64,000 bases of DNA from IMG/VR virus record IMGVR_UViG_3300046010_009647, positions 1 to 64,000 of that record. One strand, given 5' to 3'. Shown here in pieces: positions 2,649-7,381 of the stretch; position 1 is the first letter of the stretch; each line of letters begins with the position of its first letter. The notes beneath the pieces are model-generated. The model had not been told where the DNA came from. It did not search any database and worked only from the letters and a program-made list of their open reading frames with translations. The stretch comes from a virus. The position numbers and the translations under genes are program-made.

Positions 2649-3191
2649 ATGTATACCCCTGGTCCTCAAACGCAACAACCACTCAATTCTGGGGTAACTC
2701 CAGAGCCTCAAGCAAAGCCCAAGGCTCCTGGTAAATCAAAGAACGGTGACGTCGGGGCCTTCATCCAGCAATGCATCTCCCTTTCCTCCTACCTCAAGGA
2801 ACTTGAGACACAAGCCCATCTCATTCACCTGAACCACGAGGGGTCTAACTTCCTCGGGGTGCATGGGTTCCTTAAAGACCAATATGAAGCTCATTTGAAA
2901 CAGTTCGATACGTTAAGTGAGTTCATTCGCAGCATGGACTACCTGATGCCTATGTGCGCCAGGGGGCTAGCTGATGCTGGTCCTGGCATTCAACACGTTA
3001 CCAGCTACAAGGGAACAGAGATGCTCGCCACGTACTACAAGAACCTTGAAGAACTTGGTATGAAGACCAAAAAGCTGGAGCCTGTTGCGGCCAAGGTGGG
3101 TGCCATTGATATTCAAAACTACATGGCTGAGTTGTGTGGTCAAGCCTTTAAGGCTGCTTGGTTTATTAAAGCTACGTTGCGGAATGGCTGA
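2649..3191 (+). CDS. Dps/ferritin-like protein
   Basis: H..HLN..G.NF..VH..L..QYE...FD.LSE.IR pattern of the Dps ferroxidase helices. Confidence 0.75.
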   Translation: MYTPGPQTQQPLNSGVTPEPQAKPKAPGKSKNGDVGAFIQQCISLSSYLKELETQAHLIHLNHEGSNFLGVHGFLKDQYEAHLKQFDTLSEFIRSMDYLMPMCARGLADAGPGIQHVTSYKGTEMLATYYKNLEELGMKTKKLEPVAAKVGAIDIQNYMAELCGQAFKAAWFIKATLRNG

Positions 3192-4111
3192 TGCCTGGCG
3201 TATTTCAACACTTACTTAATCAAGTAAGCCGAGGATACGGTCAACTTGATAAAAAAGTATTTAAAGGCGTGTTGCCAGGGGGAGCATCTATTTCTTCTAG
3301 TCTTGCTCCTGATATTCGGAATATCTCACAGTCCCCAATTTATAAAACCGTACGAGATAAAGTTGCTGTTCCCCTTTTAGATAAAGGAATGGAAGCAGGT
3401 ATTGTTCCTGCTAAAGAAGGGATGTTTGCAAGGTTTCTTTCAGGCACTTCGCAACCTTTAACACGCATTCCTGCTGATACCAAAGCTGCAGAAGCTTTAC
3501 TTAACAAAGAACTAACACAACAAGTAACTGTAAATCCTTTGCGATTAACAGCTGAAAAAACTTTTGGTGATTGGATGAATGCCTCTAGAGCAGTAAACAG
3601 TCAAAACGAAATGTATAACATGTATGGCAAAGGTTCACCTGCAACTCAAGAACAACTAAATCAAGTAAGCACCCTGGACCAAAAAGTAAACGAATACGTA
3701 GCGCAACTAGGATTAAAAAATCGAAATGATTTAGTTGTCCCAACAACAGAGCAAAGCATTAAACAAAGACAGCAAGGATATACGCCATCTAATTACGTTG
3801 TTAGTGATTATGCGAACATTGGTGCACAAGGCTTGGGTTTAAATCAAGAACAAACGGCTCTTGTCAATAAAGGATTGGTTAATACTTTAGGGCGTTATAA
3901 GGTGCAAGACGGTCAAACTGCAGATGAAAGATATGATTTTAATTCCTACAACGTAGGTACACCTTTGTTTGCGCCAGGCTCTATGGTTGGTGGTGTGGTA
4001 GGTGAACAAGACAGCAGCCGAGTACTTGCGGATAGAGCTTTGTCCTTAGCCGATAAGTTTGGTTTTATCCAACCAGGGGCTGGTTATCCTGTTCAATTTA
4101 AATTCCGTTAA
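3191..4111 (+). CDS. hypothetical protein, possibly virion-associated
   Basis: 306-aa ORF translationally coupled to the Dps-like gene. Confidence 0.6.
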   Translation: MPGVFQHLLNQVSRGYGQLDKKVFKGVLPGGASISSSLAPDIRNISQSPIYKTVRDKVAVPLLDKGMEAGIVPAKEGMFARFLSGTSQPLTRIPADTKAAEALLNKELTQQVTVNPLRLTAEKTFGDWMNASRAVNSQNEMYNMYGKGSPATQEQLNQVSTLDQKVNEYVAQLGLKNRNDLVVPTTEQSIKQRQQGYTPSNYVVSDYANIGAQGLGLNQEQTALVNKGLVNTLGRYKVQDGQTADERYDFNSYNVGTPLFAPGSMVGGVVGEQDSSRVLADRALSLADKFGFIQPGAGYPVQFKFR

Positions 4112-5799: not shown

Positions 5800-6000
5800 T
5801 TACTTACCTTGTTTATAACGACGGGCGGCACGTCCGGCTTTTTTGGCACGTTCAGTGTTAGCTACAAATTGTTTACCTTCTCTACTACCAGCTCTTTTCT
5901 TTTGGTCAGTCTCCTCACGTTCTTCTTTAGACAGTGAAGCCCACGCTTTTTCTGGTAGGTAACGCTTAGTGTAACCCTTTTGAATTGCTTTGTCTGCCAT
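5800..6000 (-). CDS. small basic protein (C-terminal partner of the DUF5872-like protein)
   Basis: RYLPEKAWASLS..E...TD.KKR.GS..GKQFVANT; start overlaps the upstream stop (TAATG). Confidence 0.75.
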   Translation of the reverse strand: MADKAIQKGYTKRYLPEKAWASLSKEEREETDQKKRAGSREGKQFVANTERAKKAGRAARRYKQGK

Positions 6001-6311
6001 TATTTGCTTTCCTTGTACTTCTTAGCAGCAGACTTAGCCTTGCTACGTTTCTCATACTCATCTTTGGTTTGCCACTTTTCTTTGCCCCACTTCTCTAAAG
6101 ACTTTTGTTTATCACCTTTACCCCCTTTATATCCACCACCAGCTTCTTTGTACTCACTAGCAACAAGCTGAGCTTTTCTAGCCGAAATAATTAGTTAGCC
6201 TTACGGCTACGACCATTCTCCCGGTTTGCCACCACGGCCTTCACGCATAACTTTGTTTTTAATGCGCTCACGCAGGTCTGGTTTGGTGTACTTGCTTTTG
6301 TCTTCAGCCAT
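6000..6311 (-). CDS. DUF5872-like basic protein interrupted by a 27-nt coding gap (94 aa if bypassed)
   Basis: MAEDKSKYTKPDLRERIKNKVMREGRGGKPGEWS-[gap]-ARKAQLVASEYKEAGGGYKGG...KYKESK*; removing the gap restores the family motif GGKPG(Q/E)WSARKAQL; GAGG RBS upstream. Confidence 0.8.
6183..6212 (-). other. putative programmed translational bypass element (take-off TCG, stop hairpin, landing TCG)
   Basis: TCG TAG CCG TAA GGC TAA CTA ATT ATT TCG; hairpin TAGCC-GTAA-GGCTA. Confidence 0.75.
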
Positions 6312-6912
6312 AACTTCCTCGCTCTTTAAGATAAGTGACTGCGTTTGTCAATACTTCTATATTATCACCAAATAAACCTAAAGCTCTGTTGCATTCTTTG
6401 CACAACAAACCCCTAAACTCATTAGTTTTATGGTTATGGTCCATTGCTAAAGATTGTTTGTCTTTAGGAGGATCTTGGCAAATTGCGCATAAACCTTCCT
6501 GTGCCTCAAACACAACATCATATTGTGCTTTTGTTATTCCTCTGCGTTCGTATTTTTTGTGGTTGTGATGCAATAAATCTTGCCCTTGTTTTTTAACTTT
6601 TTGATAATGTTCTTTGTTATTATCTACCCATTTATTCCAGGTTATTCTGTTACAGGTTTTGCATGAAGAATGAAGATATAATTTCCCATCTTGTTTGCGT
6701 CTTCTAAAGCAATCCCAATCTAAATAATGAGCACATTTAGAACATTGTTTTTGGCCGTCTGCTCCATACAAAAGCCTAAATCGACGATTGACTAAAGATC
6801 TGCAATCCTTGCATACGCTGTCTCTTTTTATATTGCCGGCTGAGTTGTACCCTTTGTTTGCAAAATTTTCATACGGCTTTCTAGTTCCGCATTCCCGGCA
6901 AAGCTTTTGCAT
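6304..6912 (-). mobile_element. free-standing homing endonuclease, endonuclease VII (His-Me finger) family
   Basis: N-terminal CxxC zinc fingers, then Q.G.CAIC...LAMDHNH..N.FRGLLC..CN.ALG; AT-rich; flanked by duplicated gene starts. Confidence 0.85.
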
Positions 6913-6947
6913 TGGTTGGTTTGTGCTTTTCTTACTATAGCACAAAA

Positions 6948-7046
6948 TCACTGACCAGGCTTGCCACCTTTGGAGCCAGCCATCACGCGATCTTTGATTC
7001 GTTCACGTAACTCAGGTTTTGAGTACTTGCTATCATCCTGCGCCAT
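6948..7046 (-). pseudogene. truncated 5' copy of the DUF5872-like gene
   Basis: MAQDDSKYSKPELRERIKDRVMAGSKGGKPGQ* aligns with 6311-6216 and stops (TGA) exactly at the Trp (TGG) position. Confidence 0.8.
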
Positions 7047-7168
7047 CAGGATCTTTATTACGTTCTTTTAATATTTTAGCCCACTTACATGGACGTGATA
7101 ATACTTGCTCTAGCTCCTTAGCAGTTGGGTAAGGAATAGGAAGACTGAGCAAATATTTTTCGAGGCGT

Positions 7169-7381
7169 TCAGCCTCGGTAACGATTCGTCTTTTCGTCAT
7201 CCTTCTTGGCAAATTGATGCATCAAATCATCAACCTGCTCCAGGGATTCAAGACGGCACAAGATGTCAGAGATGGTTGTAATCGTAATGGGATGCTCTGT
7301 ACGTGCAGCAAATGCCAGGGCATCACGCATACAACTAGCTGCATTCTCAACGGACTCTTTAACTTGAGTAGAAAGAGACAT
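7169..7381 (-). CDS. hypothetical cyanophage protein
   Basis: MSLSTQVKESV...RDALAFAAR.E; likely start at 7381. Confidence 0.65.
   Translation of the reverse strand: MSLSTQVKESVENAASCMRDALAFAARTEHPITITTISDILCRLESLEQVDDLMHQFAKKDDEKTNRYRG

Follow-up and report, generated by a model that had tools for sequence, protein, structure and literature searches.

A homing cassette at the Trp-Ser site of a DUF5872-like cyanophage gene and a 27-nt gap that ribosomes most likely hop

How can a gene that has been cut by a homing endonuclease gene, and whose rebuilt copy is interrupted by stop codons, possibly still encode a whole protein? The question is raised by a locus on the minus strand of a 64,000-nucleotide (nt) stretch of viral DNA, positions 1 to 64,000 of IMG/VR record IMGVR_UViG_3300046010_009647 (79,499 bp, rated complete), which is called the window here. 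Around the locus the window is syntenic with Synechococcus phage S-EIVl (KJ410740). A homing cassette has inserted at Trp33-Ser34 of a small, conserved DUF5872-like gene of this S-EIVl-like freshwater cyanophage, and comparison of alleles suggests that ribosomes most likely hop a 27-nt gap in the rebuilt coding sequence. An earlier reading of the same DNA (the original prediction) had described five elements on the minus strand: a stub of the old gene, an endonuclease VII-type open reading frame (ORF), a second N-terminus, the gap and the C-terminal half. All five are present, each in its place (Table 1).

The allele set was obtained by searching IMG/VR with the nuclease, with the target gene and with the hairpin pattern of the gap, and consists of 149 distinct alleles, 43 with the gap and 106 gapless. 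Linkage to the nuclease was tallied over the 43 gap alleles, take-off and landing codons and the hairpin over 36 distinct gap alleles, and full-length nuclease ORFs over the protein-search set (n = 29). Because the 43 alleles that repeat the design come from independent contigs, a chance feature or an assembly error is excluded.

Anatomy of the insertion and its empty site

At the equivalent place S-EIVl (L001 3053..3337), the nearest relative in culture, has one uninterrupted ORF of 94 amino acids (aa), MAQDDSSYSKPELRERIKDRIMEGDRGAKKGQWSARKSQ...KKYKESK. A much closer IMG/VR relative, L123, also carries an uninterrupted 94-aa gene and represents the empty-site allele. Both agree with the expectation that sister phages lacking the endonuclease have a single gene of the form MAQDD...GQWSARK.... 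The gapless protein has a weak DUF5872 score in Pfam. Its family is widespread in phages, and GQWSARKAQ is the most conserved part. The 94-aa gene of S-EIVl is not fully annotated in GenBank, where the record has a coding sequence at 3116-3337, a shorter ORF in the same stretch.

Alignment to L123 fixes the borders of the insert. The stub, MAQDDSKYSKPELRERIKDRVMAGSKGGKPGQ followed by TGA, comprises 99 nt and has 100% nucleotide identity to the N-terminal part of L123 up to CAGTG. Identity resumes at GCTCAG, and the flanks are 92–93% identical. The insert is therefore the segment listed in Table 1, and it takes the place of 13 nt (GTCTGCCCGTAAG) of the empty site. Its left border lies directly after the TG of the Trp codon, where the first inserted base turns the TGG of uninterrupted S-EIVl and L123 into TGA, so that the stub ends exactly at this codon. 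The right border lies 0–9 nt beyond the landing Ser codon of the gap (ambiguous by up to 9 nt). The claim that both cassette borders fall at the Trp-Ser site was thus confirmed. In 24 of the 29 full-length carriers, the stub is closed by a TGA or TAA where the Trp codon had been. The stubs of several lineages are frameshifted, prematurely stopped or wholly lost, and they serve as an internal control for the other parts of the gene.

Between the stub stop and the nuclease start lies a leader hairpin, whose pairing is kept by changes in both arms (CTGTGC/GCACAG in L029 and L035, TTGTGT/ACACAA in L030, TGCGC/GCGCA in L033). An A/C-rich linker that has no Shine-Dalgarno (SD) sequence connects it to the start of the HNH gene. 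The nuclease may be translated by ribosomes delivered from the stub ORF. Its product matches Pfam Endonuclease_7 (PF02945) with an E value of 1.5e-22, and the ORF is open in 29 of 29 full-length copies (201–209 aa). Behind it begins the replacement N-terminus (N'), whose ATG overlaps the HNH stop by 8 nt within ATGGCTGA. The nucleotide identity of N' to the N-termini of gapless genes never exceeds 74%, whereas the stub and the C-terminal half (C-half) agree with the backbone around them. A cassette-type N' (GEWS) is present in each of the 43 gap alleles, with D12 and E32 as cassette-specific residues. By these identities the C-half belongs to the resident backbone and N' to the cassette.

Neither an intein nor a group I or II intron was found around the nuclease: there is no Rfam match (E up to 1) across window positions 5800-7200, and Pfam gave no Hint domain.

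Table 1. Coordinates of the target gene parts and the cassette in the window
Feature	Positions	Strand	Basis
Stub (orphaned original 5' part of the target gene), 32 codons plus junction TGA	6948..7046	-	Identity to L123
Inserted mobile cassette, whole, 775 nt	6174..6948	-	Alignment to empty-site allele L123
Leader hairpin TTGTGC-13 nt-GCACAA	6921..6945	-	Kept in 26 aligned carriers
Free-standing HNH endonuclease gene, Endonuclease VII type, 202 aa	6304..6912	-	Pfam PF02945
SD-like GAGGA for the replacement start, within the HNH 3' end	6316..6320	-	Sequence reading
Replacement N-terminus N' (ATG at 6311), 34 codons, the last being take-off TCG (6210-6212)	6210..6311	-	Divergence from gapless N-termini
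27-nt coding gap: UAG, hairpin (6196-6209), A/U-rich spacer, landing TCG (6183-6185)	6183..6209	-	Sequence, allele comparison
C-terminal half, 60 codons plus TAA (6000-6002), resident backbone	6000..6182	-	93% identity to L123

Linkage of gap and nuclease and spread of the cassette

The gap and the nuclease occur together. Among the 43 gap alleles, 31 have an intact HNH gene, seven have remnants or internal deletions, three have none (L227, L247 and L263) and two are cut by contig ends. No HNH gene was found in any of the 97 scorable gapless alleles, nine more being cut by contig ends. Co-occurrence of gap and endonuclease, as the original prediction had proposed, is therefore seen in 38 of 41 scorable gap alleles (HNH or remnant) versus 0 of 97 scorable gapless ones. 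The nuclease-less and remnant alleles keep N', the gap and the C-half intact. L227 (4429-4706), L263 (6614-6891) and L247 belong to a different phage type, in which N', a 29-nt gap and the C-half stand directly after an unrelated ORF of 98–102 aa. These three have neither nuclease nor stub, and the gap thus persists without the endonuclease.

Four carrier backbones each have a cassette-free twin with 94–97% identity. The four backbones are 74–87% identical to one another and their cassettes 87–92%. Because the backbones diverge more than the cassettes, this comparison indicates that the cassette spread by repeated homing and not by simple inheritance. In L002 the block of high identity consists of stub, cassette and C-half without wider flanks, as expected from co-conversion during homing. 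Empty site, borders and linkage together support the claim that the element inserts at the QWSARK target and supplies a new 5' half that rebuilds the gene.

The cassette is also modular, and its parts have been reshuffled in L008, L016, L020, L027 and L031 relative to the window. In L008, for example, the nuclease is 92% identical to that of the window, N' only 65%, and the gap is one of 28 nt from a different subfamily.

The coding gap and how it may be read

The gap of the window reads TAG CCG TAA GGC TAA CTA ATT ATT TCG and holds three in-frame stops. Its first 14 nt form the hairpin TAGCC-GTAA-GGCTA, of which the window has one copy versus 0.09 expected by chance. Across alleles the gap is 23, 24, 27, 28, 29 or 33 nt long, so that many alleles have their N' and C-half out of frame with each other, yet every C-half is intact. 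In-frame gaps hold two to four stops, and in the 28- and 29-nt gaps that were compared the frame of the C-half is closed by TGA directly before the landing codon. On these grounds frameshifting or readthrough across the gap was rejected for five of the six length classes, only the 23-nt class leaving an open path.

Both edges of the gap are conserved. All 36 alleles have TCG as take-off codon; as landing codon, 34 have TCG and two have TCT. In gapless genes Ser34 is encoded by AGT, TCT, AGC, TCG, TCA or TCC, with TCG in only 4 of 41. A skip from TCG to TCG restores exactly ...G(E)WS-ARKAQ.... UAG directly follows the take-off codon in all 36 alleles, and the stem UAGCC/GGCUA is invariant in 35. 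The tetraloops are GUAA, GUGA, GCAA and GGGA, the N and R positions of GNRA being the only ones that vary. The spacer varies in sequence and length and stays A/U-rich. The local hairpin has a folding energy of -8.6 kcal/mol (z -2.7); because its stem never varies, there is no covariation support to be scored.

The insertion has cut off the original 5' part of the gene, leaving a stub that stops at the junction TGA, and the EndoVII-type HNH nuclease would be expressed behind its own leader hairpin. The cassette supplies foreign codons 1–34 with their own ribosome-binding site, joined to the resident 3' half through the gap. These features suggest how the gap is most likely read. In translation, the ribosome would decode Ser34 at UCG, UAG would enter the A site and the UAGCC-GNRA-GGCUA hairpin would form at the UAG. 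The peptidyl-tRNA(Ser) would then leave its codon, the ribosome would slide across the A/U-rich spacer, and the tRNA would re-pair at the second UCG, decoding being resumed at GCN. The product, ...GEWS-ARKAQ..., would match the uninterrupted protein. At the DNA level the gap would divide the sequence that the nuclease recognizes, so that carrier DNA is spared, and yet the protein would not be interrupted. This self-immunity is suggested by the precedent of the MobA element of phage T4, and by the position of the gap exactly at the insertion site.

Other pairings near the gap have been considered. The GCCG of the 5' arm can pair with CGGC (landing TCG plus Ala GCN) in all TCG-landing alleles, and judged from the sequence such a helix could possibly bring take-off and landing sites together. 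The extended stem UGGU/ACUA of the window was rejected, as it is not kept in the 24-nt alleles. An alternative helix, TAGCCG (6209-6204) with CGGCTA (6184-6179), was also rejected, as it is present only where GCT AGA follows the landing codon; the C-half begins GCT AGA AAA after that codon. There are no tRNA genes in the window, hence no phage tRNA-Ser there.

Several observations weigh against ribosome hopping, and they are set out here together with the rival explanations that some of them favour; the three rivals are, taken jointly, unlikely. The bypass itself is one that we infer from comparison only. The hairpin is weaker than that of T4 (-14.7 kcal/mol), and the 111-nt region around the gap folds no better than shuffled sequences (z 0.32), only the local hairpin standing out. 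No SD-like triplet occurs 5–7 nt before the landing codon, where the spacer consists of A/U only; the nearest SD-like (A/G)AGG sits in the hairpin loop and 3' arm, 9–19 nt upstream of landing. In addition, the hairpin has decayed in the gap TAGCTATAATATTAAATAATTTCG of L024/L080, which count as one allele and in which UAG, the two TCG codons, the two gene halves and the nuclease (82% identical) have all remained intact. Either this allele is a natural variant of low efficiency or its gene is being lost. Two further points concern starts: in the frame of the C-half the 23-nt alleles contain an ATG, which is part of GAATGG, and the C-halves of family B have a native Met six codons in, so that a separately made C-half is conceivable in those subsets.

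Such starts fit the first rival, in which translation would terminate at the UAG after a 34-aa N' and restart nearby, N' and the C-half being two cooperating peptides like the products of the MobE/MobA-split genes. It is further favoured by marine relatives, whose family is naturally split into two overlapping genes further downstream (ATGA after GGGY), and the protein would thus tolerate being in pieces. However, the C-halves of the window and of all family-A alleles have no in-frame ATG, GTG or TTG, and no start-like codon is conserved before the landing codon across the gap variants. Reinitiation also leaves unexplained the exact restoration of WS-ARK and the use of TCG at take-off and landing, as against its rarity in gapless genes. 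This explanation is considered improbable.

A second rival holds that the insertion killed a dispensable gene, that the gap is junk at the 3' end of the cassette and that the C-halves are intact because the insertions are recent. The insertion in the window is indeed very recent, since its flanks are 100% identical to the empty-site allele beside the junction. As the C-halves are resident, part of their intactness does reflect recent insertion, and the weak DUF5872 match is the sole functional label of the target gene. A merely broken gene, however, would not account for a full replacement N-terminus with its own SD sequence. Synonymous divergence of N' (pS) is about 0.5 with very little amino-acid change, and its ratio of nonsynonymous to synonymous divergence (dN/dS) is 0.05 in 27 family-A alleles and 0.14 in family B. 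The family-B C-half has a ratio of 0.08. By these values N' and the C-half are under purifying selection. The C-half is intact in 43 of 43 gap alleles, including lineages in which the HNH gene is 51% identical, degraded or gone. The 14-nt hairpin and the TCG codons are held while the spacer varies; the stubs, by contrast, decay. A broken gene is therefore quite improbable.

In the third rival a tiny intron, or RNA processing of another kind, would take the gap out of the transcript before it is translated. This would fit the stable hairpin at the start of the gap and the identical triplet at both of its ends. Group I and group II introns are, however, far larger than 23–33 nt, and no Rfam family matches the gap. 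A 696-nt contig from an aquatic RNA library (X1 record 1) spans the gap and retains it, and no gap-less joint was found in four RNA runs, which consist of contigs covering small shares of the stretch and are uninformative on expression level, strand and rare spliced forms. This evidence is weak because contigs drop rare forms and libraries may hold DNA; that the RNA-library contigs may derive from contaminating DNA is a further point against bypassing. RNA removal is very improbable all the same. Another contig (X7) was left out of the bridging count, since on one of its sides it extends only 20 nt past the gap. The empty-site allele is found in a contig of an estuary RNA library, with the loose end GTCTGCACGTAAAGCTCAGC.

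Relation to the T4 MobA element and other systems

The gene 60 of T4 contains a 50-nt translational bypass in the MobA mobile element (Huang, 1988; Bonocora et al., 2011; both as summarized by Manning and Atkins, 2022, bioRxiv 10.1101/2022.08.31.505936), and according to the same summary Bonocora et al. have linked the gap to protection from the element's own nuclease. Manning and Atkins have described the MobA element as consisting, in this order, of an HNH gene, an N-terminal extension that the element encodes and part of which is homologous to the target sequence it displaced, and the bypass cassette. MobA is 269–279 aa long and its gene overlaps the next ORF by 8–32 nt. The elements have near-identical empty-site relatives, have inserted repeatedly and include some lineages that are nuclease-less but gapped. 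GNRA loops occur in some clades, and one Aeromonas clade has a 20-nt gap. The bypass cassette was said to remain unique and the element to occur only in the topoisomerase gene (Manning and Atkins, 2022).

The parallel with T4 MobA/gene 60 that was drawn in the original prediction holds, as the two are close in architecture. Both the T4 element and the cyanophage cassette have a truncated target 5' part, an HNH gene, a homologous N-terminal piece, a bypass cassette and a resident 3' part, and the cyanophage overlap of 8 nt between nuclease and next start is at the lower end of the range of the T4 clades. Both have matched take-off and landing codons, UAG directly after take-off and an A/U-rich spacer. 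T4 has the sequence GAT GGA TAG CCT TCG GGC TAT ... ATT ATT GGA with a UAGCC-UUCG-GGCUA hairpin. The 5-bp stem UAGCC/GGCUA with a stable tetraloop is thus common to both (UUCG in T4; GNRA in the cyanophage, as in some MobA clades), and AUUAUU before landing is found in T4 and in the subfamily of the window. The element ends at or near the landing codon in both, up to 9 nt beyond it in the cyanophage. Near-identical empty-site relatives, repeated insertion and nuclease-less lineages that keep the gap (T4 itself among them) are also shared. In addition, the N' of family B resembles its own resident N-terminus (RIMAGS.GGK), a likeness that suggests re-copying from the host gene. Re-copying of the HomR region has been reported for MobA elements.

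The differences are equally clear. The nuclease has a BLASTP E value of 1.8 against HY03 MobA and belongs to PF02945, versus the HNH family PF01844 for MobA, and it is 202 aa long versus 269–279 aa. The target is the 94-aa DUF5872-like gene of S-EIVl-like cyanophages in place of the topoisomerase II large subunit of T4-like phages. The gap is 23–33 nt versus about 50 in T4 (20 in the Aeromonas clade), the hop codon is Ser UCG and not Gly or Asp, and the SD-like triplet 5–7 nt before landing is present in T4 and absent from the cyanophage cassette. N' shows no similarity to the nascent-peptide signal of gp60. In T4 the gene is divided between two functional subunits that have gained tails, whereas the cyanophage element puts a complete N-terminus of its own, start codon and all, in place of the old one. 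As a result, the gene is predicted to yield a single polypeptide still, with the displaced 5' part no longer in use. Because nuclease family and target gene differ, the cassette falls outside the MobA family, although, as far as its sequence allows a judgement, it functions in the manner of the MobA/gene 60 cassette. The shared UAGCC/GGCUA stem could be due to common descent or to convergence. Its identity is only weakly informative, since UAG is fixed by function and the closing C-G pair suits both tetraloop classes.

Free-standing HNH homing endonucleases of phages that bring along a recoded version of the gene end they displace (for example T4 mobE, I-TevIII-like and seg genes) likewise consist of a nuclease without intron or intein beside a conserved target. 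As a rule such elements lie in intergenic positions or divide a gene so that two proteins result. Presence and absence among near-identical genomes, and flanks that travel along as in L002, are also shared with them. Unlike these elements, the cyanophage cassette would repair the coding sequence through a non-coding gap inside an ORF. Matched triplets that flank an untranslated insert within an ORF are likewise found in byps, reportedly mobile GC-rich inserts in the mitochondria of Magnusiomyces capitatus (Lang et al., 2014), and in the terminase hop of Streptomyces phage phiHau3. The latter relies on the rare UUA codon (PMC10732093). The literature on byps and phiHau3 that was consulted makes no mention of a linked homing endonuclease. 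If ribosomes do hop the gap, the bypass cassette of T4 gene 60 would have a second counterpart in nature, one whose nuclease and target gene are unrelated to those of T4.

To our knowledge, efficient long-range bypassing has so far rested on one natural system, T4 gene 60 with its MobA-element relatives. The logic in the cyanophages is as in T4; new are the nuclease family, the target gene, the hop codon, the tetraloop class, the gap length and the host group. If the bypass is real, the solution of nuclease plus hop either arose on two separate occasions or can be passed on as a module. More than 20 natural gap variants would then form a ready mutational series for hop signals, including those for cyanobacterial ribosomes, and gene callers will mis-annotate such genes as fragments. 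It is doubtful, though conceivable, that the stop-hairpin-spacer module is a portable self-immunity device that unrelated homing endonucleases have in common by descent. It is likewise unlikely that such a module has moved between nuclease families (MobA-type HNH, GIY-YIG, VSR and EndoVII-type HNH), target genes and host phyla. Were this true, ribosome hopping would be a general strategy of intron-less homing elements and not the oddity of one gene.

Outside the cassette, the pattern of TCG plus hairpin was found in 61 IMG/VR contigs, 49 of which have the cassette and 12 of which are unrelated contexts. In L209, L230, L236 and L266 (and L213/L244) TCG-TAGCCG-NRA-GGCTA stands in unrelated contigs, followed by AGGGGAGACGGTTACA... 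and with no open frame before it. In these contigs the hairpin is probably part of a different structured RNA.

In many marine phage relatives (L132, L134, L149, L150, L153, L165, L172, L189 and L205; about 1500-1700) two genes encode the protein of the target family between them, with an ATGA or TAATG overlap directly after GGGY(T/K)(S/N); these parts are fused in the lineage of the window. A third part of the family, with the motif RYLPEKAW, is the separate next gene (window 5800-6000). Several related contigs, cassette-bearing or not, have further EndoVII-type HNH genes (32–40% identical) 1–2 kb downstream, among them L002 5368-5760, L005 4904-5353, L035 5065-5499 and L121 5353-5784. The presence of these extra genes nearby marks the neighbourhood as a hotspot of homing endonucleases.

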